Assembly: GCF_900184795.1 (NCBI RefSeq)
Contig: NZ_FXXN01000026.1
Coordinates: 314,064-378,063, forward strand
Direction: 5' to 3'
Source: Magnetospirillum sp. 15-1
Lineage (GTDB): Bacteria; Pseudomonadota; Alphaproteobacteria; Rhodospirillales; Magnetospirillaceae
Length of the DNA: 64,000 nt
Below the pieces are notes generated by a model, which saw only the letters and a program-made list of their open reading frames with translations, was not told where the DNA came from and ran no database searches. A program made the translations under genes and the position numbers. This document shows, piece after piece, positions 42,701-62,946 of the stretch (its first letter is position 1; each line of letters starts with the position of its first letter).

Positions 42701-43132
42701 TCACGGATACAACTCCTCTCGGCTCCATCCCCGGTCCGCCCGATAGACGAAGCGGTCGTGCAGGCGGAACGGACGGTCGCGCCAGAATTCGATCCGCTCT
42801 GAGACCAGGCGGAGAGCCGGGAAGCGGCCCGCCGGCGCTTCCAGCCGCCCCTCGACGCGAATCTGACGCCGGATGGTCTTCCAGTGAAAGCACAAGGCGG
42901 CATTCCGGCCGGCGGCGAAGACGGCATCCCACTCTTCCGGGAAGCCGGGGTGCGGCTGCATGATGAAGCCTCCCGCTCCCCAGCCGTCCAGACGAATCAT
43001 GCGCACCCGCGGCCACGCCTGCGCGTCGGCCACGGCCAGGGCCGCATCCCGCGGGGCGTCGGGCTCGGACAGCCCGGCTTCGGCCAGCCAGAGGCCAAAA
43101 AGTCGATAGGGGTCGTCGGGTCGTTCGGACAT
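42701..43132 (-). CDS. Pyridoxamine 5'-phosphate oxidase (PdxH)-like protein, shortened. Lacks about 50 central residues relative to canonical PdxH. Possibly degenerate.
   Basis: 143 aa. The N-terminal DPYRLFGLWLAEA and C-terminal IEFWRDRPFRLHDRFVYR...W...L.P match the conserved ends of PdxH. The central segment is absent. Confidence 0.5.
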   Translation of the reverse strand: MSERPDDPYRLFGLWLAEAGLSEPDAPRDAALAVADAQAWPRVRMIRLDGWGAGGFIMQPHPGFPEEWDAVFAAGRNAALCFHWKTIRRQIRVEGRLEAPAGRFPALRLVSERIEFWRDRPFRLHDRFVYRADRGWSREELYP

Positions 43133-43431
43133 CGGCTCCTCCGGAACGGCGGGAATTGATCAAATTCGACAGGATCGGGAGACCAGCCGGAAGCCGGCGG
43201 CGGATTTGCTGCAATCGTCCAGGCGAAGAGCCCGGAAAATCCAGGCGCGGCAACTGGCACGGCGCTTGCTCCTGCATGCCGGCGCCGGACGAGTTGCGCA
43301 AAGGGAAGCAACGGAACAGGAGGAGTATTTCCAGACAGATATCAGGCCAATACCCTGCCCCTCTCCTCCCGAGGGAAAGGCTTTCATCTCCTATATTCTC
43401 CAGGGCGGAAACCCTCTGCCCGAACCTTCTT

Positions 43432-43461
43432 CCCGCCGCTTCAAAGGCGGCGGGATTTTTT
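43432..43461 (+). terminator. Intrinsic terminator/attenuator hairpin in the ribBA leader: 8-bp GC stem CCCGCCGC/GCGGCGGG, 7-nt loop and a T6 tract, ending 14 nt before the ribBA start
   Basis: Read directly from the sequence. The RBS AGGAGAG follows the T tract immediately, which is typical of a riboswitch or attenuation expression platform. Confidence 0.45.
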
Positions 43462-43474
43462 CAGGAGAGACACT

Positions 43475-44578
43475 GTGCCCCGCAATGATTTCTTGTCGCC
43501 CATCGAAGACGTAATCGCCGGCGCCCGCCGGGGCGAGATGTTCATCATCATCGACGACGAAAGCCGCGAGAACGAGGGTGACCTGGTCATCCCGGCCGAA
43601 AAGTGCGGCCCCGAGGCGGTCAATTTCATGGCGACCCACGGCCGGGGGCTCATCTGTCTGGCGCTGACCCGCCAGCGGGTCGAGGACTTGCATCTGCCGC
43701 TGATGAACGAAGCGGCGGCCGACCTGCACGGCACGGCCTTCACCGTCTCGGTGGAAGCCAGGGAGGGGGTGACCACCGGTATTTCGGCCGCCGACCGCGC
43801 CCGGACCATCTCTGTGGCGACCGATCCGGGCAGGGGATACCAGGATCTCGTCAGCCCCGGCCATGTCTTCCCGCTGATGGCCCGCGACGGCGGCGTCCTG
43901 GTGCGGGCCGGCCATACCGAAGCCTCGGTCGACATCGCCCGTCTCGCCGGGCTGGTTCCGGCCGGGGTGATCTGCGAGATCATGAACGATGACGGCACCA
44001 TGGCGAGGTTGCCGGACCTGATGGCCTTCGCCCGGCGGCACGGACTGCGCATCGCCAGCATCGAGGGGCTGATCGCCTATCGCCGCCGCCACGAACGGCT
44101 GGTGCGGCGCAAGACCGACGCCACCTTCGACTCCATCCATGGCGGAAGCTGGCGCATGGCCGTCTACGCCAATACCGTCTCGTATGCCGAGCACGTGGCG
44201 CTGATCAAGGGAGACGTCGACGATGGCGAGCCGGTGCTGGCCCGCATCCATCCCCTCAGCGTCCTCGACGACCTGTTGGGCGCCAGCCGGGGCGGCCGGG
44301 CCAACACCTTGCGCGATTCCATGCGGATCATCGCCGAACACGGCCGGGGCGTCGTGCTGCTGATGCGCGACCCCCGGCCCACCTCGGTGTCCGAGCGGGC
44401 GCGCGCCCTCGACATCCACCCGCCCGAGCCGGGTGGATTGAGGGATTACGGCATCGGCGCCCAGATTTTGCTGGACCTCGGGATATCGCGAATAGTCCTG
44501 CTCAGCAACAGCGCCAAGGCCCCCGTCGCACTGGACGGCTACGGCCTGACCATCCACGGCCGCCGGCCGATCCCCTGA
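43475..44578 (+). CDS. ribB: 3,4-dihydroxy-2-butanone 4-phosphate synthase fused to a GTP-cyclohydrolase-II-like domain that lacks the zinc-binding cysteines (RibBA-type)
   Basis: GTG start. DHBP synthase motifs (IIIDDESRENEGDLVIPAEK, GRGLICLALT). The C-terminal RibA-like domain has no CxxC...C zinc triad. Confidence 0.85.
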   Translation: MPRNDFLSPIEDVIAGARRGEMFIIIDDESRENEGDLVIPAEKCGPEAVNFMATHGRGLICLALTRQRVEDLHLPLMNEAAADLHGTAFTVSVEAREGVTTGISAADRARTISVATDPGRGYQDLVSPGHVFPLMARDGGVLVRAGHTEASVDIARLAGLVPAGVICEIMNDDGTMARLPDLMAFARRHGLRIASIEGLIAYRRRHERLVRRKTDATFDSIHGGSWRMAVYANTVSYAEHVALIKGDVDDGEPVLARIHPLSVLDDLLGASRGGRANTLRDSMRIIAEHGRGVVLLMRDPRPTSVSERARALDIHPPEPGGLRDYGIGAQILLDLGISRIVLLSNSAKAPVALDGYGLTIHGRRPIP

Positions 44579-44593
44579 CATCGCCCGCCCCGC

Positions 44594-46042
44594 TCAGGAG
44601 GCCCGAACCCGGTCGAGAAACGCCCCCACCTGCTCCCGCAGCCGGGCCGACTGGCCGGAAAGGGCGTCGGCCTCCCGCGTCAGGGAGGCGGCCATGCTCC
44701 CGGTCTCTCCCGCCGCCGCCGACAAGGTGGCGGCGTTTTCCGAGACCTCGCGGGTGCGGCTGGCCGTCTCGCCGATCGCCTCGGCGATCTCGCTGGCCGT
44801 CACCGATTGCTGCTCGACCGCCACGGCGATATCCCCGGTGATGCGGTTCATGGTCTCGACGGTTCCAGTGATGGACTGGATGGCGGAAACCACCGTGTTG
44901 GTCACCGACTGCATCTGGGAAACCTGGGCCTGGATCTCGTCGGTGGCCTTGGCCGTCTGGTTGGCGAGATTCTTGACCTCGCCCGCCACCACGGCGAAGC
45001 CCTTGCCCGCCTCGCCGGCCCGCGCCGCCTCGATGGTGGCGTTCAAGGCCAGCAGGTTGGTCTGGGCGGCGATATCGTTGATCAGGCTGACCACGTCGCC
45101 GATCCGGCGGGCGGCCTCGGCCAGCCCTTCCACCATGGCGTTGGTGCGCGTGGCCTCCTCCACCGCCCGCCCGGCGATGCGGGCGGATTCGTTCATCCTC
45201 TCCCCCACCTGCCCCACCGAGGCCGACAACTGGCCGGCCGCCGAAGCCACACGCCCCACATTGGCCGAGGCCTCGCCCGAGGCGGTGGCGACCCGGGCCG
45301 AGCGCCCGCTGCCCTCCTCCGCCGTTCCGGCCATGCGTCGCGCGCCTTCGCGCAGATGCTCGACCGCCGTGCCCAGGGACTGAACGATCGCCGAGATACC
45401 CGCCTCGAACTGGTCGGCCACGCCGCGCAGGGCCTCGGCCTGACCCGCATGGGCCTCGGTCTGTGCCCGCCGGGCACAGACCAGCTCGCCGATGTCGTGC
45501 CAGTTGACCAGCACCGCCGGCCGGCCGCCGATGGCCGCCACCGTCAGGGTCACCACGACCGGAAAGCCCTCGCCGTCGCGGCGGCTGTGCATCCATTCGA
45601 AGCGGTTGGAACCGTTCTCCAGGGCCTGTCCGATCATCTCGGCGGCCTTCTCGTCCGACCGGCGGCCGTCGGGCTGGAACTCCGGCGATATCTCGGAGGG
45701 CGAAACGGCAAGGACATCCTGGCGCCGCTCGCAGCCGAGCAGCCGGGCGGCGGCGGAATTGCACTCGGCGAACCGGCCATCGACGATCACCATGCCGGCG
45801 TCCGACGACAGATCGAACATGGCCATCGCCACCTCCTCCCTGAACGACGGCCCGCCCAGCCCGGTCAGGCCGGCCTGGCGGATACGGCCGACGGCGACCC
45901 AGCCGCCGGCCAGCAGCCCCAGCCCGACCACGGCCAGGGCGGCCGGCCCCGGGGACTGCCCAGACAGTGCCAGGGCGGCCAGGACCAGCGGTGCGGCGAG
46001 GCTGCCGAAAGCCGCCACCAGGGACTTGATGCGTCGCGTCAT
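44594..46042 (-). CDS. Methyl-accepting chemotaxis protein with periplasmic/TM region and cytoplasmic PAS domain
   Basis: Start MTRRIKSL. Two TM segments, a PAS fold ([13 protein letters not shown]...[12 protein letters not shown]) and an MCP signalling domain ([31 protein letters not shown]). Confidence 0.8.
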
Positions 46043-46545
46043 GGATATTCCCCACAAGCTCCGTCCACGGCGAAGCTCTCCTTGCTGCCGAAGGACCGGG
46101 TATTATCGATATAGGTCGCCCGTCCGACCGTCAGCCGATAGACGACGGCCTTGGCCAGTGCGGCGGCGATGGCCGGCGCCCGCCCGTCGGCCTTGAGGAA
46201 GCCGTACCGGCCGACCAGGCGGGCCAGCGCCACTGCGGCCTCGCCGGACCCCGTGGTCCGCGATGCCTCGCCGGCCAATTGCAGCCCGCGAACCTGCCGG
46301 AAATCGGCATAGTCCGGCGCCACCGTCGCCATGGCCGCCACCCGTCCCCCGGCATCGATCAGCCGGGAATGGCGGGCGGCGGGATCGGACAGCCAGTACA
46401 GGACGAAGCCGTCGTTGGCGTACATCAGCGAGCAGGCGTGCGGGAAGCCGCCCTCTCCGGCCAGCGCCAGCGACAGCACATGATGGCCGTCGAGAAACGC
46501 CCGCGCCGTCGCCAGGGTGGCGGAACCGCCGCTATCGCCGGACAT
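46039..46545 (-). CDS. Pyridoxamine 5'-phosphate oxidase family (FMN-binding split-barrel) protein
   Basis: 168 aa with a split-barrel-like pattern. 4-nt overlap with the MCP start. 14-nt overlap with the paaK stop. Confidence 0.55.
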
Positions 46546-47854
46546 GGAAGCGTCGCGCCTTCAACTCGAAGCGGGGTAACGCGCCGCGAGGCAGCGCCTC
46601 GACCTTGGGGCGAAACCCCAGCATGGCGTACAGACGCTCGGCCATCGGCCGGATGACCTCCTCGCCGTCACCGTCCAGTTCCAGCTCGATGGACATCTCG
46701 TCCATGTGCCGCACTGTTTCGACGGTGATGCGGAACTCGTCCACTTCGGGAAACTGGCGGATGATGTTCTCGACCGCGGCGGGGTAGACGTTGACGCCGC
46801 GCACCGTCACCATGTCGTCGGCCCGACCGATCACCCCCCCCTCGAAGCGCATTGAGGTACGGCCGCAAGCGCAACGCTCGTAGACGGGTCTGACGATGTC
46901 ACCGGTGCGGTAGCGGATCACCGGGAAGGCCCAGCGGCCGAGATTGGTGATCACCAGCTCGCCCTTTTCGCCGGGGCCGACCGGCAGCAGGGTCCGGGGG
47001 TCGAGAATCTCGGCGAAGAACTCGCTCTCGATCAGATGGGTTCCGCCGGGCTGGGCCTGGCATTCGAAGGAATGGGCGCCCACCTCGGTCGCTCCGGCAT
47101 GGTCAAAGCACGATGCCGACCACGTATCCTCGATGCGTTGCTTGGTGGCGGGAATGTTGGCTCCGGGCTCACCGGCATGGACGGTGGCGCGAATGGGGAT
47201 CGACGACAGGTCGAAACCGCTCTCCCGCGCCACCTCGGCCAGACGGAGCGCGTAGGTGGGCGTGCAGGCCAGCACGGTGGCCCCGGCGTCGCGCATCAGT
47301 TCCAGCCGTTGCAGGGAATCGCGCCCGCCGCCCGGAATCATCATGGCGCCGACCTTGCGAGCCCCCTCGACAGCCGCCCAGAACCCGACGAAGGGGCCGA
47401 AGCTGAAGGCCATGAAGAAGCGGTCACCCGGCCCGACCCCCGCTCCGGCCAGGACATGGGCCCAGCAATCGCCGAACCAGTCCCAGCTTTGCTCCGTATC
47501 AGGAACCCGCAGCGGATTGCCGGTGGTTCCCGAGGTCTGGTGGAAGCGGACGTAATCAGCCGCCGGGTAGGTTAGGTTGGTGCCGAACGGACCGTTGGCG
47601 GCCTGATCCTCCACCAGTTCCTTCTTGGTGGTTACCGGCAGCTTGGCGATGTCGGCCAGCGAGACGATGTCGTCCGGATGGATGCCGGCAGCCTTCCATT
47701 TCCCGGTATAGAACCGGTTCTTACCCCACAGTTCGGCCATCATGGCCTTCAGCTTGCGGAACTGAAGCCCGGCCAGTTGTTCGCGCGGCAGGGTCTCGAC
47801 GGCCTCGTCGAAGTAGGTGACCTTGCGGTCGAGGGTCAGGGTGGAGTTGCTCAT
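46532..47854 (-). CDS. paaK: Phenylacetate-CoA ligase-family adenylate-forming enzyme
   Basis: 440 aa. PaaK-family motifs (FHQTSGTTGNPLRV, IRYRTGDI). AMP-binding core lacking the long C-terminal domain of FadD-type ligases. Confidence 0.8.
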   Translation of the reverse strand: MSNSTLTLDRKVTYFDEAVETLPREQLAGLQFRKLKAMMAELWGKNRFYTGKWKAAGIHPDDIVSLADIAKLPVTTKKELVEDQAANGPFGTNLTYPAADYVRFHQTSGTTGNPLRVPDTEQSWDWFGDCWAHVLAGAGVGPGDRFFMAFSFGPFVGFWAAVEGARKVGAMMIPGGGRDSLQRLELMRDAGATVLACTPTYALRLAEVARESGFDLSSIPIRATVHAGEPGANIPATKQRIEDTWSASCFDHAGATEVGAHSFECQAQPGGTHLIESEFFAEILDPRTLLPVGPGEKGELVITNLGRWAFPVIRYRTGDIVRPVYERCACGRTSMRFEGGVIGRADDMVTVRGVNVYPAAVENIIRQFPEVDEFRITVETVRHMDEMSIELELDGDGEEVIRPMAERLYAMLGFRPKVEALPRGALPRFELKARRFHVRR

Positions 47855-47903: not shown

Positions 47904-48299
47904 CTAGAATTGGACGTGAAGGGTCAACCGATCTCCGTCGACCACTCCCAGGCGGTTGCGGATGGGGGTCGCGGCCAGCAGTTCGGCCTTGTCGGCCGGG
48001 TAGCCGGCGACATCGGGGATCACCAGCGCGGCCTCGACCGTTCCGGCCAGAAGCGCTCTGAAGCAGGCGGCTGCGCAGCAACCCTCGCGCGGGGGGATGC
48101 GGATCCCATGGCTGTCCAGCAGTTCGGACCGGATTCCCGGCCAGTGCGGACTGGAAATTCGCAGATTGAAGGTCCCGGGATAGGGAGTGAACCCCAGCCG
48201 CGTCTCGCATTCCCGCAAGAACCAGCCCAGCGAGGTGAAGGCCCGCCCCTCACCCAGGCCGGAACAGGTCTCGCCGGCCAGTTCCACCAGCCGGTTCAT
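47904..48299 (-). CDS. CTP-dependent riboflavin kinase, archaeal type (DUF120/RibK family)
   Basis: 131 aa with the DUF120 signature PYPGTFNLRI (here GFTPYPGTFNLRI) and conserved EG...A.C.PA.I. Start ATG overlaps the stop of the upstream UbiD-like gene (ATGA). Confidence 0.6.
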   Translation of the reverse strand: MNRLVELAGETCSGLGEGRAFTSLGWFLRECETRLGFTPYPGTFNLRISSPHWPGIRSELLDSHGIRIPPREGCCAAACFRALLAGTVEAALVIPDVAGYPADKAELLAATPIRNRLGVVDGDRLTLHVQF

Positions 48300-49648
48300 G
48301 GCCTCGTCATCCCGGCCAGCACCCGTGCCGCCCGCTCCATGGCGGCGGCAGGGATGGCGATGCGCTTGCCGGCGGCCTGCCCGCCCCTGGTGGCGTCGAA
48401 ACCGATCTTCGAACCGCTGCCGTCGGCCGGCGGCGACGGGTCGATCACATAGCCCTCCAGCCCCGACAGGATCACCGTATCCCGGTCGGGCTGGTAGCGG
48501 GTGGCCAGAGCCCACGAGACGTGGCGGGGATCACGGATATCGATGTCGGCATCCACCACGGTGATGGATTTCAGCCGCCGGTCGAGACCCAGCGCCAGCA
48601 GGATCAGCCGGCGCACCTCGTGCGGCTTGAGCCCGTCCACCGCCAGTACGGCGTTGAAGCCACAGGTGCCCGCCACCAGTTCCAGATCCCGGACGCCGTG
48701 GCCGTGGTTGCGCAACTGCCCCAGCAGGTCGGCGCCGGCGGCCAGTGACAGCAGATTGTCCACCTCGACCGTCCACGGGCACAGCCCGGCATAGATAAGG
48801 TCGCGGCGGTGCAGGATGGCCGAGACCTCCATCACCGGGCTGACGTTGGAGAAGTAGTAGCCGGTATTCTCGCCGAACGGCCCTTCCTCCCGGCGCACGC
48901 CCGGCAGCACGCGCCCCTCGATCACGGCCTCGGCACGGGCCGGAATGTCGAGATCCACCGTCAGACCAGGGGTCATCTCCAGGGGATGGCCGCGCAATCC
49001 GCCGGCGATCTCCAGCTTGTCCGGCCCGTCGGCCCCGGCCTTGATGACGGCGGCCAGCAGCATCGCGGGGTCGACGCCCAGCGCCACCGCCACTTCCAAT
49101 GGACGGCCCGCTTTCTCGGCAGCCGCCAGATAGAGCGACAGCGGCGGATTGGCCAGCAGGATACCCAGCCGGTTACCGCCATGGACCATCATACGGTGGA
49201 TGCCCATGGCGCGGCGCCCCGTATCCGGGTCGCGGGCCAGGACCACCCCGCAGGTAATATATGGGGCGGCGTCGTCCTCGTGATGGGTGAGGATCGGCAG
49301 GATGGCGGCCACGTCGGCGGGAGCCTTGTGGACCACTTCCTTCACCGGGGCGGGTCCGTCCATCGGCACGGGGGCGCGGGCATGGTGTCGGGCGCCCAGA
49401 TAGGTGTCGGCCAGCCGCTCCTCGGTGGTTCCCATGGCGCGGGCCATCAGCCGGCGACTGCCCAGCAGGTTGCCCGCCACCCGCACCCCCGGATAGCCGT
49501 CGACGTTTTCAATCAGCACCGCCTTGCCCGAGGACTGCGCCCCGGCCAGAACGGCGGCGATCTCGTGGCGGGGCGAAAGCCGGTCGTCGATGCGCAGCAA
49601 GTCCGGGCCGATATCGTCCAGGAACCCTCTGAGATCCGCATATCCCAT
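48296..49648 (-). CDS. UbiD-family (prFMN-dependent) decarboxylase/carboxylase, third paralog of the island
   Basis: UbiD-family motifs (EGPFGENTGYY, VVDADIDIRDPRHVSWAL). Start MGYADLRGFLDDI at 49648, with an AGGA RBS 7 nt upstream. Confidence 0.85.
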   Translation of the reverse strand: MGYADLRGFLDDIGPDLLRIDDRLSPRHEIAAVLAGAQSSGKAVLIENVDGYPGVRVAGNLLGSRRLMARAMGTTEERLADTYLGARHHARAPVPMDGPAPVKEVVHKAPADVAAILPILTHHEDDAAPYITCGVVLARDPDTGRRAMGIHRMMVHGGNRLGILLANPPLSLYLAAAEKAGRPLEVAVALGVDPAMLLAAVIKAGADGPDKLEIAGGLRGHPLEMTPGLTVDLDIPARAEAVIEGRVLPGVRREEGPFGENTGYYFSNVSPVMEVSAILHRRDLIYAGLCPWTVEVDNLLSLAAGADLLGQLRNHGHGVRDLELVAGTCGFNAVLAVDGLKPHEVRRLILLALGLDRRLKSITVVDADIDIRDPRHVSWALATRYQPDRDTVILSGLEGYVIDPSPPADGSGSKIGFDATRGGQAAGKRIAIPAAAMERAARVLAGMTRP

Positions 49649-49719: not shown

Positions 49720-49977
49720 TCAGTAGCGGTACTTTTCCGGAAAGCGCTCGACCTCGGAGAGGATCTGGATCGAGAAACGCTTGTCGGAGAGCTGCCCGCG
49801 CCCGAAGCGGACCTGGAGCCGGTCGGGCAACCGTTCCAGATCGGGCGACAGCTTCGCCCGGACCCGCTTGTAGGTGTATTTCCGGTGACCGTCGTCGAGC
49901 GTGCGGATGGTCAGCTCCATCTCGCCGTCACCGGCCAGTTCCGCCAGATCGGACACGAAGATTTCCCAGGTGTTCAT
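49720..49977 (-). CDS. ppcD: Small subunit of phenylphosphate carboxylase (PpcD-like, about 10 kDa)
   Basis: 85-aa ORF in the position that ppcD occupies in the Thauera aromatica pps-ppc cluster. Assignment is by size and synteny only. Confidence 0.5.
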   Translation of the reverse strand: MNTWEIFVSDLAELAGDGEMELTIRTLDDGHRKYTYKRVRAKLSPDLERLPDRLQVRFGRGQLSDKRFSIQILSEVERFPEKYRY

Positions 49978-49988
49978 CGCCGGTCTCC

Positions 49989-51476
49989 TTACTTGACGGG
50001 GGAGAAGCCGTAGGCTTCCCAGTTGCCGACGACCTTTTCCTGGATCGCCTTGGGGTAGACGTTCTTGAACGACACCACGGTGGGCACTTCGTTGATGCGG
50101 TCCCAGTCCACGGGCCAGGTGCAGTCGAACAGCACCTGCGAGCCCATGGAGTATTTCCGCTCATGCGGGCTGGCGTGGGGATAGAGGGCGGTGCCGGTGG
50201 TGTGCTCGAACACCCGGATGCCGCGCACCGGATTACACCGGGTGCAGAAGGCGTGATACACCTCGTCCCAGTTGTAGATGTCGATGGTGTCGTCGACCAC
50301 CATCACCATGTGGAACCACGGCCCCAGCTTGCTGCCGAAAGCCAGTTGGGCGATCTGGGTGGCGATGCCGGCATAGGTGGGCTTGACGCCGACGATCATC
50401 ATGTGATGGGTCGAGCGCGGGTGCATGTACACCCCGGTGATGGGAATACCCTGGCTGCGCAGCAGCTTGTCCAGTTCGAGCCCCAGCGAGAACGAGCGCA
50501 GCAGCTGCCCCTCGTCGGTGGGAACGCCCATGTTCGAAATGGTCATGGTGGCGTTGTTGCGATACGTGATGCACTTCACCCGGAAGGTCACCCGGAAGTC
50601 GCGCGGCGAGGTGCGATAGCCGGTGTACTCGCCGAACGGGCCTTCCTCGACCTTCACGTCGGGAACGATCTCGCCCTCGATGATGATCTCGGCGTCGGCC
50701 GGAACCTCCAGATCGCTGGTCTCGCACTTGACCAACCGGACCGGCCGGCCGGCCAGCATGCCGGTCAGCTCGGGCTCGGGGATCGGCGAGGGCGCGCAGG
50801 CCGCCATGGCCGCCAGCGGCGACAGGCCGATGGCGGTGGCGAACGGCATGGCCTCGCCGCGCGGCAGGTAGTATTCAGACAGCGTCTTGCCCAGGTCGGA
50901 GAATGGGAATACCGCGCCCGACATGGTGCGGCCGTCATACATCATCTGGCGATACATGCCCCAGTTGACGTCGCCCCGCACCGGATGGCGGGTGATGACC
51001 GCGTGCCAGGTCCCCACATAGCGGCCGCCATCGCCGTCATGGACCAGCGGCACCGGCAGCCGGGTGAGATCCACGTCGTCGCCGGTCAGGATGTTCTCCT
51101 TGCACGGCGCCTCGTCGCGCCCCACCAGCACCGGGGCAACGGGGGCCGAATTGGTGCGCTTCAGGTACTCGGCCGAGATTTCCGGCAGGGTGGATTCCGG
51201 CTTCATGCCGAGCGCGATGGCCATGCGGCGGTAGGAGGACAGCGGCGCCCCGAAATAACTGAAGCCGGGATAGTCCTTGATCCGCGTCATGTAGGGGGCG
51301 GGAGCGCCCAGCTCGCAGACGCGGCGCACGATGGCCCCCGCCTCGTTGTCCCAATCCACTTCCTGGTCGATCTGGACCATGTCGCCGGTCCGGCGCAGCG
51401 CCTCGATGTATTCACGGTTGCTCAAGGGCGCGTTGATCCCGGGCGCCCCCGGCTGGGTCTTGCTGATGGTGTTCAT
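49989..51476 (-). CDS. ppcA: Phenylphosphate carboxylase alpha subunit (UbiD family)
   Basis: Start MNTISKTQPG (ATG complement 51476). 495 aa. UbiD motifs (EEGPFGEYTGY, MVMVVDDTIDIYNWDEVYHAF). Alpha versus beta is assigned by size and order. Confidence 0.8.
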   Translation of the reverse strand: MNTISKTQPGAPGINAPLSNREYIEALRRTGDMVQIDQEVDWDNEAGAIVRRVCELGAPAPYMTRIKDYPGFSYFGAPLSSYRRMAIALGMKPESTLPEISAEYLKRTNSAPVAPVLVGRDEAPCKENILTGDDVDLTRLPVPLVHDGDGGRYVGTWHAVITRHPVRGDVNWGMYRQMMYDGRTMSGAVFPFSDLGKTLSEYYLPRGEAMPFATAIGLSPLAAMAACAPSPIPEPELTGMLAGRPVRLVKCETSDLEVPADAEIIIEGEIVPDVKVEEGPFGEYTGYRTSPRDFRVTFRVKCITYRNNATMTISNMGVPTDEGQLLRSFSLGLELDKLLRSQGIPITGVYMHPRSTHHMMIVGVKPTYAGIATQIAQLAFGSKLGPWFHMVMVVDDTIDIYNWDEVYHAFCTRCNPVRGIRVFEHTTGTALYPHASPHERKYSMGSQVLFDCTWPVDWDRINEVPTVVSFKNVYPKAIQEKVVGNWEAYGFSPVK

Positions 51477-51490
51477 TCGGTCTTCCTTTC

Positions 51491-52000
51491 TCAGGAGAGC
51501 TTGGCGAGCAGGGCTTCCCACTTGCCCTGGGCTTTCAGGATCAGTTCGGCGGTCTCGCGCACCGCGCCGCGGCCGCCGCCCGCCGTGGTGACCAGGCAGG
51601 CGATATCGCGGATTTCGGCCACGCCGTCGGCCACCGCCACCGGCATGCCCACCCGCTTCATCATCGAGTAGTCGACCAGATCGTCGCCCACGTAGCAGAC
51701 CTCGGCGTCCGAGATGCCCATGTCGGCCTTGATCTCCTCGTAGGCGACGGTCTTCTTCTTGATGCCCTCGTAGTAGCGCTTGATCCTCAGTTCCTCGGCG
51801 CGGTTGCGTACGGCACCGCACTTCTTCGAGGTGATGATCGCCACCTCGATGCCGGACATCTGAAGCGCCACCACGCCCAGACCGTCCTTGATGTCGAAGT
51901 TGCGGGTCTCGACCCCGTTGTCATCCATGACGATCCGGCCGTCGGTCATCACGCCGTCCACGTCCAGGATCACCAGCTTCACGTCCTTGGCCTGTTCCAT
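51491..52000 (-). CDS. ppcC: HAD-superfamily KdsC-like phosphatase subunit of phenylphosphate carboxylase
   Basis: 169 aa. HAD motif I LVILDVDGVMTDG and KdsC-like core. Lies between the two UbiD-type subunits as in Thauera. Confidence 0.8.
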   Translation of the reverse strand: MEQAKDVKLVILDVDGVMTDGRIVMDDNGVETRNFDIKDGLGVVALQMSGIEVAIITSKKCGAVRNRAEELRIKRYYEGIKKKTVAYEEIKADMGISDAEVCYVGDDLVDYSMMKRVGMPVAVADGVAEIRDIACLVTTAGGGRGAVRETAELILKAQGKWEALLAKLS

Positions 52001-52013
52001 GATTCGCCCCTCC

Positions 52014-53429
52014 TCAGACGCCGATGCCGTATTCGGTCCAGCGCCGCTCGACCTTGGCCATGGTGTCCTTGTCGAGCGCCACCTCGACCGGCTTCTCCTT
52101 CCATTCGAAGGGGATGGTGGCGTCGAGGAGGATGCGCGACGTGATCAGCTTGTTGCCCTCCGGGTCGAGCGCCGGGTCGAGCGGCGTCGAGCGCCCGCGC
52201 TTGATCAGTTCGGTGCCGCGCATGGGGTCGTAGCGGCAGGCCAGGGCCCAGAAGACGCGCTGGATGTCGTCGGCGGCGATGTCCTCGTCCACCACGATCA
52301 CGCCCTTGATGCCGTAGCTGCCGGTCGTGGTGGAGATGACGGCGTTGGCGACCTGGGACGAATGGCCCGGATACATGGTCTTGACCGAGACCACGGCCCA
52401 GAAGCGCCCGGCCGATTCGGGCATGACGTTGACCGACTGGATACCGGGGATGGCCATCTTGGACAGGTCGGTCCACAAGGTGGCGGTCCGGGTGAAGGAC
52501 AGCAGCATGTGGACGTCGGTGACCGGGCGGCCCACCGAGGTGGCCCACAGGATGGGCTTGTTGCGATGGAGGATCTGCTTGACCTCCAGGCAGGGCTTCC
52601 TCACCTCCTTGTAGAGTTCCTCGGTGTAGTAGCCGGTGTACTCGCCGAAGGGACCCTCGGGCTGGAAGTTGTCGGGGTCGATCTCGCCTTCCAGAACGAT
52701 TTCCGCATGGGCGGGCACCGGCAGGCCGGTCAAGGGCGCCTTCAGGAACTCGGTGGCCTTGCCGCGAACCGACCCGGTCAGGTCGTACTGGTTGGCTCCC
52801 TCGTGCTGCAGGGTGGCGGCCATCATCATCAGCGGATCACAGCCGATCACCGCGACGGCCGGCATCTTGCGGCCCAGCTTCTTGTACTTGTTCATGATGC
52901 GCTCGCCGCGCTTGCCGGGCAGGATCTGGACGCCGCAGCGCTTGTTGTCGAGCATCTGCATGCGGTAGGTGCCCAGGTTGATCTGGCCGTTCTCCGGGTC
53001 CTGGATCACCACGAAGACGGTCGTGCCGATATAGCGCCCACCGTCGCGGGGGAAGAATTTGGGCACCGGGAACATGTTGAGGTCGACCTTGTCGCCGCTG
53101 ATCACGTTCTCGAGGATCGGGCCGTCCTTGACCTCGACCGAGGGGATCAGTTCGTCGATGGTCAGCTCCATCCACTTCCGCGCCGCCTGGCACAGCGTGT
53201 ATTCGCGCGGCATGTTGACCACCATCGCCAGGCGCGACGAGGTGGCGAAGGCGCCGGTGAACACCGAGGTGTCGTAGCCCTTGACGTTCTCGAACAGCAG
53301 GGCGGGGCCCTTGCGCTCCTCGGTGACCTTGGAGACGTGGGACAGTTCCAGGTTCCAATCCACCTCGGCGGTGACCCGCTTCAGTTCGCCGGTCTCGTCA
53401 CACCTCTTGATGAAATCCCTCAGATCCAT
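52014..53429 (-). CDS. ppcB: Phenylphosphate carboxylase beta subunit (UbiD family)
   Basis: 471 aa with UbiD motifs (PEGPFGEYTGYY, VIVVDEDIAADDIQRVFWAL). Confidence 0.8.
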   Translation of the reverse strand: MDLRDFIKRCDETGELKRVTAEVDWNLELSHVSKVTEERKGPALLFENVKGYDTSVFTGAFATSSRLAMVVNMPREYTLCQAARKWMELTIDELIPSVEVKDGPILENVISGDKVDLNMFPVPKFFPRDGGRYIGTTVFVVIQDPENGQINLGTYRMQMLDNKRCGVQILPGKRGERIMNKYKKLGRKMPAVAVIGCDPLMMMAATLQHEGANQYDLTGSVRGKATEFLKAPLTGLPVPAHAEIVLEGEIDPDNFQPEGPFGEYTGYYTEELYKEVRKPCLEVKQILHRNKPILWATSVGRPVTDVHMLLSFTRTATLWTDLSKMAIPGIQSVNVMPESAGRFWAVVSVKTMYPGHSSQVANAVISTTTGSYGIKGVIVVDEDIAADDIQRVFWALACRYDPMRGTELIKRGRSTPLDPALDPEGNKLITSRILLDATIPFEWKEKPVEVALDKDTMAKVERRWTEYGIGV

Positions 53430-53500: not shown

Positions 53501-54163
53501 TCAGTGCAGCGCTTCGATCCGTTCCAGCACCGGGAACGACGCCTGCTGCAGCGCCCCCACCACACCGGCGAAGTCCTTGGCATGGAAGCGGACGATCAGC
53601 TTGGCCTCGGGCTTAGGCGTCAGCGGTGGAGCGGAAGCGATGGGATAGATCGCCAGCACCTCGCCGCCGGCATCCTCGATGACGGTGACGGTGCGGCCGA
53701 TGACGCCCGGCTCCAGTTCCATGGGGCCGAGCGTGACACCGCTGCGCCGCTCCCAGGCCCCCAGGAAATGGGCGGCCAGATTGAAGATCTCGTTGGCCGA
53801 GATGATGCCGACCACGCAGTCGCCGTCGACCACCGGGAACTGGGCCACGCCCAGGTCGCGGCCCTTGGCCAGGCATTCCTCCATGGTGGTCTCGACGCCC
53901 ACGGTCGCCGGATTGCGGACCATGACGTCCTTGACCTTGAGGCGCGTGGTGAAATAGTCGAACTCGTTGGGGTCCTGGCTTTTCAGCATGAACAGGGTCG
54001 TCCTGATGCAATGTGCCCGGGTCAGCAGCCCCCGCAGCCGGCCGTCGTCGACCACCGGCAGCGCCTGGAGGTTCCTCGTGGTGAGGATGTGCTTGGCCTC
54101 GGACAGCAAGGCGTCGCTGCTGACCGTGACCGGCGGATGAAGCATCCAGTTCTTCACTTTCAT
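53501..54163 (-). CDS. ppsC: CBS-domain pair protein, phenylphosphate synthase stimulating subunit
   Basis: 220 aa with two CBS motifs (VKDVMVRNPATV...VVDGDCVVGIIS). Position as in the Thauera cluster. Confidence 0.75.
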   Translation of the reverse strand: MKVKNWMLHPPVTVSSDALLSEAKHILTTRNLQALPVVDDGRLRGLLTRAHCIRTTLFMLKSQDPNEFDYFTTRLKVKDVMVRNPATVGVETTMEECLAKGRDLGVAQFPVVDGDCVVGIISANEIFNLAAHFLGAWERRSGVTLGPMELEPGVIGRTVTVIEDAGGEVLAIYPIASAPPLTPKPEAKLIVRFHAKDFAGVVGALQQASFPVLERIEALH

Positions 54164-54185
54164 GGCAATTCTCCCTGGGGCCGTC

Positions 54186-55277
54186 CTAATGGACGAGCTT
54201 CTTGCCGGCCAGCATGTTGGCCAGGATGTGGTCGAGAGGCGACGAGGTGCCGCCGACGGCGGTCGAGGCGGCGCCGTCCTTGCCGCTCCACACGGTCTCG
54301 GGACGGGCCTGAAGGATGAAGACGTTGCTTCCCTTCGGCATGTCCTTGTCGATGGCCCACTCGATATCCATGGGCCGGCCGTAATGACGCTCGATGGCCT
54401 TGGCCATGCGGGCCAGCTCGGTCAATTCCTCGTCGGTGACCGATTGCACCTTGCGCCGTTCGTCGGGCACCTCGGCCTTCACGGTCTTGTGCGCCTTGTG
54501 ATCGACCGTATAGAGGATCGTCTTGTCGGAGATGTTGCGCTCCATCACCTCCAGCGAGACCTTGTTGACCCGGAACTGATCCGGCGTCACCTCGCCCGAC
54601 ACCACCGATTCCCCGAAGCCGAAATTGGCGTCGATCACCACCGATGAACGATCACCGTTGGAGGGATTCAGGGTGAACATCACCCCGGCGGTGAAGGAGT
54701 TGGCCATCTTCTGCACGCCGACGCTGATGCCGACGTCAGTGTGGCGAAAGCGCATCTTCTGCCGGTAGGCGATGGCTCTGGCGGTGAACAGGCTGGCGGT
54801 GCAGCGGCGCACCCGGTCGAGGATGTCGTCCACCCCCCTGATCCACAGATAGGTATCCTGCTGGCCGGCGAAGCTGGCTCCGGGCAGGTCCTCGGCGGTG
54901 GCGCTGGAGCGTACCGCCACCGGCGTCGCCGGCATGCAGCACACCAGGGACAGCCGGGTATAGAAGTGGGCGATCTCGTCCTCCATCCGCGTGGAGAACG
55001 GCGTCTGCTGGATGCGCTCGCGGATCTCCTGGCTGACGGTCTCCAGCCTGGCGATGTCGTCATGGTCAATACCGGCCAGCATGGCCTCGACCTCGCACAG
55101 CACGGTATTGGCGCTCATGAACTCGCGATAGGCCGCGGTGGTGACCGCGAAGCCGGGGGGCACCCGGACTCCGGCCTGGATCAGTTCGCCGAGCGACGAG
55201 CATTTGCCGCCGACCTCTTCGATCATGTTGGAATCGCAGTCCGAGAACCAACGGACATGGGGGGATTGAATGGACAT
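54186..55277 (-). CDS. ppsB: Phenylphosphate synthase subunit B (PEP-utilising enzyme, ATP-grasp/nucleotide-binding N-terminal domain homolog)
   Basis: Start MSIQSPHVRWF (ATG complement 55277). Homolog of the PEP synthase/PPDK N-terminal domain (RSSATAEDLPGASFAGQQDTY). Confidence 0.8.
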   Translation of the reverse strand: MSIQSPHVRWFSDCDSNMIEEVGGKCSSLGELIQAGVRVPPGFAVTTAAYREFMSANTVLCEVEAMLAGIDHDDIARLETVSQEIRERIQQTPFSTRMEDEIAHFYTRLSLVCCMPATPVAVRSSATAEDLPGASFAGQQDTYLWIRGVDDILDRVRRCTASLFTARAIAYRQKMRFRHTDVGISVGVQKMANSFTAGVMFTLNPSNGDRSSVVIDANFGFGESVVSGEVTPDQFRVNKVSLEVMERNISDKTILYTVDHKAHKTVKAEVPDERRKVQSVTDEELTELARMAKAIERHYGRPMDIEWAIDKDMPKGSNVFILQARPETVWSGKDGAASTAVGGTSSPLDHILANMLAGKKLVH

Positions 55278-55336
55278 GAGGGCTGCCTTCTCCTGAGGGC
55301 GCGCCGAGGCGCGCCCCCGTTGCGCTTCCACCTGGT

Positions 55337-57176
55337 TCACAGGATGGTGATCTCGCCGGTCGACCCGTTGACGCGGATCATCTGCCCGGTCTTGATGATC
55401 TTGGTGGCATGGCCGGTACCGACCACGGCGGGCATGCCGTACTCGCGGCAGACGATGGCGGCATGGCTCATCACCCCGCCCACATCGGTGACGCAAGCCC
55501 CGATCTTGGAGAATACCGGCGCCCAGGACGGCGAGGTGGTGGGAGACACCAGGATCTCACCGGCCTCGAGACGGCAGATGTCCTCGACCGTCCGGCAGAC
55601 GCGGGCCTTGCCCTCGACCGTGCCCGGACTGCCGGCGAAGCCCTTGAACGCCCGGATGTTGTCCGGATCGTCGCAATCCTGGATGTCGGACCACGACTTC
55701 AGGGATTCGTTGGTCACGCCCCACAAGACGATGGTGAAGGGTTCCTGGATCACTTCGGGGGCGGTGCCGACCGCCGGAGGCGGGCTCCACTCGCGGAACT
55801 TTTGCAGCACCTCCTTGCGCCACCCGATCTCCTTGGGCAGCGTGAAGGCGCCGCGCGGCTTCACTCCGGTAGCCCAGGCGGTGACCATGTCCCACAGGGC
55901 ATCCTTGATCTCGCCGCGCCGCAGGTACCAGATGTCCTCGACGTCCTCGATCATGCCGTGCTCGACCATGATCCGCGACACCTCGCGCACCTTGTTCCAG
56001 AACACCGAGTGGAACCAGTGCTCGACGTAGAACAGATGATTCTCCACATAGGGAAATACCGTCTTGGCGGTATTGAGCAGCTGGTCGAAGGCGGCGCGGT
56101 CCTGCTCGTTGGCGATCAGCGCACGGTATTCGGCGGTGATGGAGTCGCGTTCCTTGCGAATGGCCTCCAGGGGCCGGTCAAGGCTCTCGCCTCGGCGCAG
56201 CTTTTCGGCATACATGCAGATGGAGGACAGCGGGACATCCGGTTCGTCGTTCCACGAGCGGTCGTGGTGGTACCAGCCGGTCCCGGTCGAGATGTTGAAC
56301 CAGGGATAGCGGGCCTCCTCGAAGGCGGCCAGCCACTTGCGGCCGTTCTCGCTGCCCTTCATCACTCCCTGGACGTCGGCGAGGCGCGGATTGCCGCTCA
56401 GCGAAGCATCGACCCCGAGGGAAGCCGCCAGGCGGGCCAGCTTCTTCAGTTCCTCGTCCGGCCGGTACATGATGACGTCGATGCCCGAGACCATCTGGGT
56501 GACGCGCTGTGCCTGGATGTCGGGAAAGATCTTCTGGCAGAAGTCGAGGAAGGTGACATAGGCGGCGTAGCCCAGATTCAGGAACTCGAAATGGTACTGC
56601 CAGCAGCGGATACCCAGGTCGATCAGCTGATCGTAAGCCCTGAGCAGATGGTAGCCGCTGGATTCCCCCAGCCCGTCCGTGACGAAGGAGATGTCCTCCA
56701 GTTCGGGCAGCGTCGGAATCTTCAGTTTTTCCAGGCTGTCGATGGTGGAGCGCATCTTGGCCTCCCAGTTGGCCTCGAGCTCCGTCCAGTTGGAGTAGTA
56801 GTAGCCGGCCCGCTCCATGAAGTGGGCGACGCGCGCCTCGACCACCTTCGGGTCCTTCACCGGCACCGGCGAGATGTAGGGGTAGCCGTTGATGATCCGG
56901 TGATCCACGCCGAACACCGGCGGAACCGAGAACACCCGCGTATTGTTCTGCGACAGGGCGAGATACCACGCCTCGTCCCAGATGGTGTCGAAGGGACACA
57001 GCGGCTCGGGATAATGAAGCCCGTCGTAGAACCAGAAGGCGTCGGCTTCGTACGTCCGCCGCTCCTCGTCGTCGGTCACGAACTGGTACTGATAGGGATA
57101 CATCCGTTCCCAGCCCTCGGTGCCGGGAATCGTCTCCAGATCATGGGGGCAGGGAAAGCTGCTCTTGTTGCCCATC
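55337..57176 (-). CDS. ppsA: Phenylphosphate synthase subunit A (PEP synthase-like, phospho-histidine mobile domain)
   Basis: Start MGNKSSFPCPH (ATG complement 57176). C-terminal PEP-utilising mobile domain with catalytic His (GGVMSHAAIVCREYGMPAVVG). Confidence 0.85.
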
Positions 57177-61475: not shown

Positions 61476-62078
61476 ATGACCCATCCAATCGTCGTCGCCA
61501 TCACCGGCGCCACCGGCGTGATCTACGGCGTGGAATTGCTGAGGGCGCTGCATGCCCTGGGCGAGCCCGTCCACCTGATCCTCAGTGAATCCGCGGTGCG
61601 CAATCTGCACATCGAGACGACCTACAGCGTCGAGGAAGTCGAGGCCATGGCCGAGGTGGTCTACAACAACAAGGATATCGGCGCTTCGGTATCCAGCGGG
61701 TCGTTCAAGACACGGGGCATGGTGGTCGCCCCCTGCACCATCAAGACGCTGTCGGCCATCGCCAACTCGTTCAACGACAAGCTGGTGGTCCGCGCCGCCG
61801 ACGTGACGCTGAAGGAGCGGCGGCCCCTGGTGCTGATGGTTCGCGAGACGCCGCTGCATCGCGGCCATCTCGACCTGATGATGCGGGCCGCCGACAACGG
61901 GGCGACTCTGCTGCCCCCCATGCCCTCCTTCTACAACGGGCCGAAGACCATCATGGACATCGTGCATCAGAGCGTCGGCAAGGCGCTCGATCAGCTCGGC
62001 ATCGACCACGACCTGTTCCGGCGCTGGACCAGCGAGGTGTCCAAGGACCTCGCCATCCGGCTGGCCCGCACCGCCTGA
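61476..62078 (+). CDS. ubiX: Flavin prenyltransferase UbiX (prFMN synthase)
   Basis: 200 aa with UbiX/Pad1 family motifs (VVAITGATG, MVVAPCTIKTLSAIANSFNDKLVVRAADVTLKERRPLVLMVRETPLH). Confidence 0.9.
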   Translation: MTHPIVVAITGATGVIYGVELLRALHALGEPVHLILSESAVRNLHIETTYSVEEVEAMAEVVYNNKDIGASVSSGSFKTRGMVVAPCTIKTLSAIANSFNDKLVVRAADVTLKERRPLVLMVRETPLHRGHLDLMMRAADNGATLLPPMPSFYNGPKTIMDIVHQSVGKALDQLGIDHDLFRRWTSEVSKDLAIRLARTA

Positions 62079-62094: not shown

Positions 62095-62946
62095 ATGCCC
62101 CCCCTCCCCCTCGGCGTTCCCGCCGCCCCCCTTCCCGCCGCAGACGTCCAGGGATTCCACGACCCCCGCGACATCCCGATCCAGGACGTCGGCGTGCGGG
62201 GAGTCCGCGTTCCCGCCTCGGTCGCCGGCCGCGACGGCCTGCGCCACCACAGCGTCGCCCTGCTCGACATGTTCGTCTCCCTCGAAGGCCACAAGAAGGG
62301 AGCGCATATGTCCCGCTTCCTGGAACTGGCCGGCCGGGGAATCGAAATCGGGCCGGGCAGCGTCCGCCATCTGGCAGAGACCATGCTCGACCGTCTTGAG
62401 GCACGGGCTGGCAGCATCGAGCTGCGTCTGCCGGTATTTCTCTCCCGACCGGCCCCGGTCACCGGAGCCATCGCCCTGCTCGACTGTGATCTGCGCCTAT
62501 GGTCGCGCATCTCGGACGGGGGGAGCGAAACGGGCCTGGCGGTGGTGGTGCCGGTCACCAGCCTTTGCCCGTGCTCGAAGGCCATCTCGCGCCATGGCGC
62601 CCACAGCCAGCGCTCGCACGTCACCGTCGAGGTCGAAGGGCGGGACGGTCTTCCTCCGTTCGAGGACATCGTCGAACTGGTCGAGGCACAGGCCTCGTGC
62701 GCCATCTTTCCACTGCTCAAGCGGGCCGACGAGAAGTTCGTGACGGAACGCGCCTACGAGAACCCGAAATTCGTCGAGGACATGGTTCGCGACGTGGCCG
62801 TGGCGCTGGAGGCCGACCCGCGGATAGGGTCGTTCGCCGTCTCGTGCGAGAACTTCGAATCCATCCATACCCATTCGGCCTTCGCCCGCATCGAGCGCCG
62901 GGATGATATCAGCAAATTCATCCATTCGCCGGCCTATCCCCGCTGA
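62095..62946 (+). CDS. folE2: GTP cyclohydrolase I type 2 (FolE2/MptA family)
   Basis: 283 aa with the FolE2 signature (NFESIHTHSAFA, LCPCSKAIS). Cys-rich metal-site context. Confidence 0.7.
   Translation: MPPLPLGVPAAPLPAADVQGFHDPRDIPIQDVGVRGVRVPASVAGRDGLRHHSVALLDMFVSLEGHKKGAHMSRFLELAGRGIEIGPGSVRHLAETMLDRLEARAGSIELRLPVFLSRPAPVTGAIALLDCDLRLWSRISDGGSETGLAVVVPVTSLCPCSKAISRHGAHSQRSHVTVEVEGRDGLPPFEDIVELVEAQASCAIFPLLKRADEKFVTERAYENPKFVEDMVRDVAVALEADPRIGSFAVSCENFESIHTHSAFARIERRDDISKFIHSPAYPR

Follow-up and report, generated by a model that had tools for sequence, protein, structure and literature searches.

A PF01982 protein with the fold of archaeal riboflavin kinases is encoded beside ubiX and UbiD-family genes in bacterial phenylphosphate carboxylase clusters

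Bacteria normally carry RibF, which, like the eukaryotic riboflavin kinase (RFK), is ATP-dependent; in the plant protein AtFMN/FHy, RFK is fused to a flavin mononucleotide (FMN) hydrolase. Riboflavin kinases of another family, PF01982 (CTP-dep_RFKase/DUF120), are represented by MJ0056 (RibK) and by RbkR Ta1064 of Thermoplasma acidophilum, a bifunctional kinase/transcription regulator (3CTA, 5TRD; PMC5397151), and RibK orthologues have been stated to be absent from Bacteria (PMC5397151). FMN is also a substrate of UbiX, which joins reduced FMN to dimethylallyl monophosphate (DMAP) or dimethylallyl diphosphate (DMAPP) to give reduced prenylated FMN, prFMNH2 (PMC6541611). UbiD enzymes bind and oxidise prFMNH2, at times aided by the chaperone LpdD, and their activation can need more than UbiX; for many of them, co-expressing UbiX alone cannot yield active enzyme (PMC10865409). 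Here we analyse a gene on the minus strand at positions 47904-48299 of a 64,000-nucleotide stretch (the window) of Magnetospirillum sp. 15-1, contig NZ_FXXN01000026.1. The gene lies in an operon for anaerobic phenol degradation, and an earlier reading of the window from its letters and open reading frames (ORFs), the sequence-only reading, had taken it for an archaeal-type RibK serving an FMN/prFMN supply line for phenylphosphate carboxylase.

The gene encodes a protein of 131 amino acids (aa; MNRLVELAGETCSGLGEGRAFTSLGWFLRECETRLGFTPYPGTFNLRI...). This protein matches PF01982 with 88.4 bits (E 4.5e-25; gathering cut-off, 25 bits) over profile positions 2-121 of 121, and a sequence comparison with the PDB pairs it with two riboflavin kinases of solved structure, MJ0056 (E 1e-9) and Ta1064 (E 7e-8). 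An AlphaFold model was obtained with a predicted local distance difference test score (pLDDT) of 88.6 and a predicted template modelling (TM) score (pTM) of 0.84. Foldseek gave RbkR 5trd as its best structural match (TM 0.84, root-mean-square deviation 2.4 Å, E 3.6e-10), and the MJ0056 structures, 2vbu and 2vbv among them, matched at TM 0.76-0.79 (2vbu/2vbv, 0.78-0.79; 2vbu, 0.79); these two proteins account for all significant fold matches in the PDB. A database entry with the identical sequence is named 'DUF120 domain-containing protein [Magnetospirillum sp. 15-1]'. A 203-aa reading of the ORF, from a GTG at 48515, was dropped because the ATG is the start codon in the database entry and in the homologues. 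The GC content at third codon positions is 0.81, and GC by codon position resembles that of the adjoining genes. We conclude that 47904-48299 is a real gene, with a match far beyond chance, and that its product is a member of PF01982 by hidden Markov model (HMM), fold and catalytic motifs. The family named by the sequence-only reading thus stands, the HMM assignment being well over its cut-off and in agreement with the fold; the label 'archaeal-type RibK' stands less well, given that the protein is not a plain RibK orthologue and belongs to a separate subfamily, called W-type below, without the conserved flavin-contacting Tyr. The view of RibK-type kinases as confined to archaea (PMC5397151) is outdated.

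In the window, the minus-strand order is ppsA, ppsB, ppsC, ppcB, ppcD, ppcA, ppcC, a UbiD-like gene, the DUF120 gene, a paaK-like ligase gene, a PNPOx/YhbP-like gene and a gene for a methyl-accepting chemotaxis protein (MCP). The ATG of the DUF120 gene (48299-48297) overlaps the TGA of the UbiD-like gene (48298-48296) as ATGA, in the context CC-ATGA-AC, as the sequence-only reading had noticed. Two further junctions overlap, that of the ligase and PNPOx-like genes by 14 nt and that of the PNPOx-like and MCP genes again as ATGA. The DUF120 gene is predicted to be co-transcribed and translationally coupled with the ppc accessory genes.

The same association was found well beyond this genome. In a DUF120-anchored scan with one genome per GTDB species, comprising 80 loci (cited by L numbers) searched with the window proteins by tblastn, ubiX lay within 250 bp of the DUF120 gene in 15 of the 22 bacterial loci. 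Thirteen betaproteobacterial loci (Sulfuritalea, Ca. Desulfobacillus, Rhodocyclaceae, Alcaligenaceae, Casimicrobiaceae and Rubrivivax) have the order ppsC-ppcB-ppcD-ppcA-ppcC-ubiDlike-ubiX-DUF120-(Nudix)-PNPOx-like-paaK-like; one of them, L008, is truncated at the gene, with downstream genes as in the others. Thermincola (L017) has DUF120-ubiX-ppcB, and two Chloroflexota loci (L040, L053) have DUF120-ubiX with PpcB-like genes upstream. Among metagenomic loci, L081-83 repeat the window gene order, ATGA overlap included, and L084 has ubiDlike-ubiX-DUF120-Nudix-PNPOx. L092, from a gammaproteobacterial metagenome-assembled genome (MAG), reads ubiDlike-DUF120-Nudix-PNPOx-ligase-ppsC-LpdD_chaperone-ubiX-Metallophos. 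We also sampled ppc clusters independently of DUF120, anchoring on PpcC, and looked up five: Azoarcus sp. CIB (CP011072.1, L094; PF01982 gene at 12284-12721), L096, a Chloroflexi MAG (L097), an Aromatoleum MAG (L098) and L100. In all five, a PF01982 gene directly follows ubiX or a UbiD-like gene, and ubiX is within 250 bp in four. The spacing to ubiX is 21-248 bp in L001-L007, L009-L013, L017, L040, L053, L084, L094, L097, L098 and L100, and a UbiD-like gene directly precedes DUF120 in the window, L081-83, L092 and L096. Adjacency to ubiX or a UbiD-like gene is therefore kept through at least three gene orders and five bacterial lineages, namely Betaproteobacteria, Alphaproteobacteria, the Gammaproteobacteria MAG, Thermincola and Chloroflexota. 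The linkage is conserved and not unique to Magnetospirillum sp. 15-1.

Six of the 22 bacterial loci carry neither ubiX nor UbiD: L030, with a PNPOx-like gene as sole neighbour, and five of Desulfobacterales type. In the latter (Desulfobacterales/Deltaproteobacteria L046, L066, L075, L077 and L080), DUF120 belongs to a different conserved set, together with a SAM methyltransferase, an uncharacterised 110-aa protein and a HAD phosphatase; near this set, again with no ubiX, lie genes for UPF0261 proteins and for an FMN_red-SCP2 protein, and UPF0261 also occurs in Thermincola L017. Among about 58 archaeal loci, we found no ubiX adjoining a PF01982 gene. That some bacterial members stand outside UbiX/UbiD contexts, and that in archaea the family provides a general flavin-biosynthesis enzyme beside ribB or ribL, would suit an ordinary second riboflavin kinase that was acquired horizontally and is carried passively, with no role in phenol or prFMN metabolism. 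We hold this to be very unlikely, because it does not explain an adjacency that persists across gene orders and lineages and in every PpcC-anchored cluster, start and stop codons that overlap neighbouring genes, or a composition that is fully ameliorated. Rather, since the same gene stands beside UbiX in the phenol clusters of several phyla, it most likely supplies flavin for the carboxylase cofactor. Our preferred reading, which we regard as probable, is that the W-type protein is a riboflavin kinase feeding FMN to UbiX for prFMN synthesis. Riboflavin as acceptor and the hand-over of FMN to UbiX are what we infer from this context, and CTP is the presumed donor by analogy with the archaeal enzymes.

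Residue roles for taRbkR and mjRibK were taken from PMC5397151 and mapped through an alignment to the solved kinases. The phosphate loop is intact in the window protein, where S13-G-L-G-E-G-R19 corresponds to 101-SGMGEGR-107 of taRbkR. The Mg/phosphate motif Y40-P-G-T43-F-N45 corresponds to 128-YxGTLN-133, with Leu replaced by Phe, and the cytidine-contacting L202-R203 correspond to I113-R114. E106 aligns with E195, the proposed catalytic base; P95 and Y100 of the flavin lid align with P185 and Y190, and F21 aligns with Y109. An exhaustive profile search gave 1664 family members at E <= 1e-3, and conservation was read from an alignment of 160 W-type cluster representatives, in which the window protein and nine close relatives were added to the top 150 matches of that search. 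No sequence departs from T43 or N45 (160/160 each), G42 and E106 are found in 159/160, P95 in 158/160 and Y100 in 143/160. By these counts, the residues bearing the chemistry, together with most of the flavin lid, are under strong selection; one key flavin contact has been re-engineered. Conservation at the active-site and lid positions speaks for a catalytic protein whose acceptor has the size of a flavin.

Part of the W-type has a relaxed GxGxG loop, G18 being Ala or Ser in 75/160 sequences and G16 being changed in about 36/160. This would be expected if the protein had evolved from a kinase into a non-catalytic carrier or chaperone for flavin or prFMN with a role like that of LpdD. A dedicated prFMNH2-binding chaperone is known in UbiD maturation (PMC10865409), and an LpdD gene is present in one such cluster (L092). 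Still, T43, N45 and E106 are kept in 159-160 of 160 sequences, which implies retained chemistry, and the S-G-L-G-E-G-R loop of the window protein is complete. We therefore think a carrier quite improbable.

With the same residue roles mapped onto all retrieved PF01982 proteins, the sequences fall into two types. The canonical Y-type, to which MJ0056 and Ta1064 belong, keeps Tyr115 and has Gly at window position 75, and its genes adjoin ribB (12 loci) or ribL (9 loci); no such adjacency was found at the window gene or any bacterial relative. The W-type has a Trp one residue before the Tyr115 position (W26; 156/160 sequences), Val (117), Ala (26) or Phe (11) in place of the Tyr, and Phe at position 21. 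It includes the window protein, every bacterial homologue and genes of Bathyarchaeia and Thermoproteota, which are the closest archaeal relatives of the bacterial proteins. By neighbour-joining, the bacterial sequences formed one group in 76 of 100 bootstraps and the W/Y split was recovered in 55 of 100, so that with this simple method support for the bacterial clade and for the split is moderate only. A single clade of ppc-linked proteins within the bacterial group was recovered in 0/100 bootstraps and was rejected. On the residue patterns, PF01982 appears to comprise two recognisable subfamilies.

Gene maps of three loci from Thermoproteota/Brockarchaeota (L014, L016 and L018) show a canonical pair of winged-helix (wHTH) RbkR and RibL, with a W-type gene at a distance of 2 kb. 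In L014, wHTH-RbkR is at 7306-7983 and the W-type paralogue at 9980-10381; the arrangement in L015 was seen by tblastn only. The gene preceding the W-type paralogue in these archaea resembles a GH10-type glycosidase, by eye only. The presence of RbkR and a W-type PF01982 protein in one MAG is at odds with the reported rule for RbkR and RibK, by which the two are never found together. The L059 contig, labelled 'Candidatus Limnocylindrales bacterium', has all the conserved neighbours of the Bathyarchaeia loci and is probably a mis-binned archaeal contig.

Several small genes accompany DUF120 in the ppc clusters. A Zn-ribbon Nudix gene lies directly 3' of DUF120 in most of them (9/13 of L001-L013; L084 4881-5396, L092 8465-9085, L094 12742-13290, L098 4556-5107) and is fused to it in protein P0106. 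The best NCBIfam match of this Nudix protein, below threshold, is the NAD+ diphosphatase NudC, a dinucleotide pyrophosphatase; the reaction could be the conversion of DMAPP to DMAP or of flavin adenine dinucleotide (FAD) to FMN. Homologues of the window PNPOx-like protein (35-38% identity) are either fused to DUF120 (P0077, P0078) or encoded next to it (L030 10437-10898, L089 7854-8303), and L089 has, after a gene for a PNPOx-DUF120 fusion, another PNPOx-like gene, which is of the window type. In L097, a PNPOx-like gene (5276-5752) overlaps the end of a UbiD paralogue, and the betaproteobacterial clusters have a second, unrelated PNPOx-like type in the same role. Either type may act in flavin reduction, as a carrier or in prFMN maturation. 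Other genes recur as well: LpdD_chaperone (PF21758) just before ubiX, Metallophos after the CoA ligase and Flavin_Reduct between ppcB and ppcD (L092 11624-12061 and 12669-13415; L098 6566-7402; L100 5154-5684; 12/13 of L001-L013), the L100 cluster encoding a Flavin_Reduct protein. No homologue of Nudix, LpdD or Metallophos was detected in the window by tblastn.

Domain fusions also occur. Thirty-six of 159 retrieved PF01982 proteins exceed 200 aa. About 23 proteins are fused to HAD hydrolases, in both orders, and four to PNPOx-like domains: P0077 and P0078, of the type encoded at window 46039-46545 (36-38% identity), P0136, and P0156, of the betaproteobacterial type. Single proteins carry Nudix (P0106), an FMN-dependent dehydrogenase (FMN_dh, P0130), an MFS transporter (P0033), a histidine phosphatase (His_Phos_1, P0118) or a glyoxalase domain (P0098). 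The Nudix and PNPOx-like fusions mirror the gene neighbours of the ppc clusters, and the FMN-binding partners together with the transporter indicate a flavin substrate.

These genes can be placed in a tentative pathway. The W-type kinase would phosphorylate riboflavin with a nucleoside triphosphate, CTP by analogy, and so make FMN locally; the PNPOx-like or Flavin_Reduct protein would bind or reduce the FMN; and the Nudix protein or metallophosphatase would trim DMAPP to DMAP, or FAD to FMN. UbiX would then prenylate the reduced flavin with DMAP or DMAPP to give prFMNH2, which LpdD, where present, would hand over and which would be loaded onto PpcA, PpcB and the third, orf8-type UbiD paralogue. 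The supply line proposed by the sequence-only reading thus gains support from the conserved ubiX/UbiD synteny (15/22 and 5/5 clusters), its substrates being presumed.

A number of observations weigh against a role in FMN supply. The FMN-contacting Tyr115, called absolutely conserved in RibK and RbkR (PMC5397151), aligns with F27 in the window protein, preceded by Trp26. The equivalent of F165 is C74, a position that is Phe, Tyr or Trp in 126/160 relatives, and a subfamily-specific Cys75 is found in 144/160 W-type sequences, with Cys79 in about 65%. The protein stays below the NCBIfam equivalog cut-offs for RibK (ribK_Meth NF040694, 45.7 against 168; RbkR-type NF010762, 67.9 against 279); these cut-offs do not discriminate here, because a bona fide-looking archaeal RbkR-like protein beside RibL, that of L014 at 7306-7983, also falls below (192 against 279). 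In the window genome itself, ubiX is 13 kb away and the cluster has no Nudix gene. W-type genes in Desulfobacterales, with HAD and methyltransferase neighbours, and in Bathyarchaeia are unlinked to ubiX, so that the function of the subfamily must be broader than prFMN supply. As bacteria normally have RibF, a second riboflavin kinase would be formally redundant. Finally, the W-type gene stands beside a canonical RbkR-RibL pair in archaeal L014, L016 and L018; it may therefore not simply duplicate riboflavin kinase, and it is unlikely to be the housekeeping kinase of those organisms.

Some of these points would be accommodated by a kinase of the same fold that acts on another acceptor for prFMN synthesis, either phosphorylating prenol (dimethylallyl alcohol) to DMAP or using a reduced or modified flavin. 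The Tyr115 equivalent is lost and the new residues W26 and C75 line the same region; a canonical RbkR exists alongside the W-type in some archaea; adjacency to ubiX is tight; UbiX enzymes take DMAP or DMAPP (PMC6541611); and the protein is fused to, or encoded beside, four phosphohydrolase families (HAD, Nudix, His_Phos_1 and Metallophos). However, five of six flavin contacts are kept subfamily-wide (F21, the aromatic residue at 74, P95, Y100 and E106), which is unexpected for a five-carbon alcohol. The fusions with FMN-binding domains (PNPOx, FMN_dh) and an MFS transporter also speak for a flavin, and the Nudix protein of the same clusters could already give DMAP from DMAPP. We consider another acceptor unlikely, if worth keeping in mind. 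Similarly doubtful, in our view, is a wider proposal in which the W-type proteins are not housekeeping riboflavin kinases but a separate class of kinases that work with a PNPOx-like partner and are dedicated to making a UbiX substrate (DMAP from prenol, or a reduced or modified flavin phosphate). In this proposal, a single acquisition from archaea of Bathyarchaeia/Thermoproteota type would have brought the class into bacteria, where it became part of the prFMN toolkits of anaerobic aromatic carboxylases. FMN supply to UbiX remains our favoured reading.

The other operon genes of the window, all on the minus strand, were assigned as follows. Phenylphosphate synthase is encoded by ppsC (53501-54163), ppsB (54186 to about 55226, start approximate) and ppsA (55337 to about 57175, start approximate; NF006152, 1116 bits); the region 53501-57175 contains CBS, PPDK_N and PEP-utilizers domains, with lengths following the gene calls in L081. 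For phenylphosphate carboxylase, the beta subunit gene ppcB (UbiD family) is at 52014-53429 (TIGR02724, 852 bits; cut-off, 469). The delta gene ppcD (HAD/KdsC-like) is at 51491-52000 and scores 278 bits with TIGR02726, just under 282, its position being conserved. The alpha gene ppcA (UbiD family) is at 49989-51476 (TIGR02723, 1012 bits against 565), its start at 51476 being read from the ORF translation and a 495-aa homologue in L081. The gamma gene ppcC is at 49720-49977 (PF09662, 123 bits; TIGR02725, 118 bits, below the cut-off of 135.55).

The third UbiD-family paralogue ('orf8-type'; 48296-49648, minus strand) has UbiD_N, UbiD and UbiD_C domains; with the ATG at 49648 as its start, it comprises about 450 aa, a length that follows the L081 gene call. 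It scores 285 bits with the general model TIGR00148, and 83 and 96 bits with phenyl_P_alpha and phenyl_P_beta, and is thus neither PpcA nor PpcB. With these two it makes up the three UbiD paralogues counted by the sequence-only reading. Its identity to the gene that holds this position in L001-L013, and thus across Alpha- and Betaproteobacteria, is 59-67%, and it may act as a decarboxylase or in the handling of prFMN. The gene before ubiX or DUF120 is always this third paralogue in the window, L001-L013, L092, L094, L096-L098 and L100. The UbiD-like gene is separated from ppcC by a gap of 71 nt. This gap contains a weak terminator-like hairpin with a T-run at 49693-49678 (minus strand), which may leave the accessory genes less expressed than the structural ppc genes.

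Downstream of DUF120, and starting 49 nt past its stop, a PaaK-like aryl-CoA ligase is encoded at 46532-47854 on the minus strand (AMP-binding and AMP-binding_C_2 domains). It is probably a 4-hydroxybenzoate-CoA ligase; PaaK-type models score 256-297 bits, below their cut-offs, and the position of the gene is conserved in L001-L013, L092, L094 and L098. The next gene (46039-46545, minus strand) encodes a PNPOx/YhbP-like split-barrel protein, a putative FMN-binding partner (YhbP model, 41 bits; PNPOx_N and Pyridox_ox_2, 25 bits, below gathering). The operon ends with the MCP gene, an ORF at 44594-46042 (minus strand), with PAS_9 and MCPsignal domains seen on the L081 homologue.

The window ubiX is on the plus strand at 61476-62078 (PF02441, 140 bits; TIGR00421, 234 bits against a cut-off of 109). 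It lies 13.2 kb from the DUF120 gene, as the sequence-only reading had it, in a divergent unit after two XylR-type sigma-54 activators, and is 54-60% identical to the ubiX that adjoins DUF120 in other clusters. On this divergent side, ubiX is followed by a FolE2-type GTP cyclohydrolase gene and a Phenol_MetA_deg porin gene. The FolE2-type GTP cyclohydrolase IB, at 62095-62946 (plus strand), begins 17 nt 3' of ubiX (PF02649, 258 bits; NF010200, 245 against 215), and the pair of ubiX and GCHY-1 recurs in the phenol cluster of an unrelated genome (L096, 15124-15936).

A ribBA-like gene is at 43475-44578 on the plus strand, 3.3 kb from the DUF120 gene (TIGR00506 ribB, 242 bits). It is convergent with the MCP gene and therefore forms a separate transcription unit. 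In the GTP cyclohydrolase II half, the match is limited to profile positions 3-88 of 191, and the protein may be a degenerate, RibBX-like one. The adjacency is found only in the window, L081 and L082, and tblastn detected no RibB in L001-L013, L017, L040 and L053. No Rfam family reached its gathering score anywhere in the window, and 43050-43550 gave no more than chance-level matches at E <= 10, so that an FMN riboswitch upstream of ribBA has no Rfam support. The sequence-only reading had cited a nearby ribBA in favour of a supply line. The gene is indeed nearby, but with a lineage-restricted adjacency, a convergent orientation and no FMN riboswitch it makes a weak argument, and we rejected it as general evidence for a module. 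An 11-bp GC-rich hairpin followed by TTTTTT lies at 43431-43455 (plus strand), 20 nt before the GTG of ribBA, with no gene upstream on the same strand.

We found no paper tying riboflavin kinase or DUF120 to UbiX, UbiD, prFMN or phenylphosphate carboxylase, in a search that left most subscription journals outside, so that a prior mention is possible; nor did we find literature on DMAP, Nudix and UbiX together. This agrees with the suggestion of the sequence-only reading that the module is not an established one. The genes are already annotated in public genomes and are therefore not new sequences; novelty appears to reside in the association itself, in the set of accessory genes and in the division into subfamilies. 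Phenol, and probably also benzene and naphthalene, can be activated in the absence of O2 by UbiD-family (de)carboxylases, which are also wanted as CO2-fixing biocatalysts. The genes around ubiX, encoding the W-type kinase, the Zn-ribbon Nudix, the PNPOx-like protein, the metallophosphatase, LpdD and the flavin reductase, are candidates for missing prFMN helpers, and bear on the supply of FMNH2 and DMAP in anaerobes and on the maturation of prFMN there. The hosts include a cultured strain, Azoarcus sp. CIB.

Among described proteins, MJ0056 shares with the window protein its Pfam family, a single domain of about 130 aa, the cradle-loop-barrel fold (TM 0.76-0.79), the GxGxG loop, the GT(L/F)N motif, the catalytic Glu and the Pro/Tyr flavin lid. 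The two are only about 25% identical, however, and the window protein has W26-F27 in place of the conserved Tyr, as well as C75 and C79; its gene is found in a bacterial host, in a UbiD/UbiX aromatic-carboxylase operon, and not beside ribB or ribL. RbkR Ta1064 matches it one to one in the CTP-site residues, whereas the window protein lacks the N-terminal winged-helix domain and does not conserve Y115. RibF and AtFMN/FHy resemble it in the proposed conversion of riboflavin to FMN, and the pairing of kinase and HAD domains in the plant protein is mirrored by the roughly 23 DUF120-HAD fusions. The RibF-type enzymes differ in the presumed nucleotide and in a fold that is unrelated or distant, 1q9s and 1nb0 being marginal in Foldseek (E about 0.1, TM 0.34-0.36). 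The UbiX-UbiD system with LpdD (PMC10865409, PMC6541611) offers the parallel of small accessory genes by ubiX and ubiD whose products are presumed helpers of holo-UbiD, and LpdD (PF21758) co-occurs with DUF120 in L092. LpdD, however, is a Pba3/4-like prFMNH2 binder without kinase motifs and handles the product of UbiX, whereas the DUF120 protein would provide its substrate and so act upstream of UbiX.

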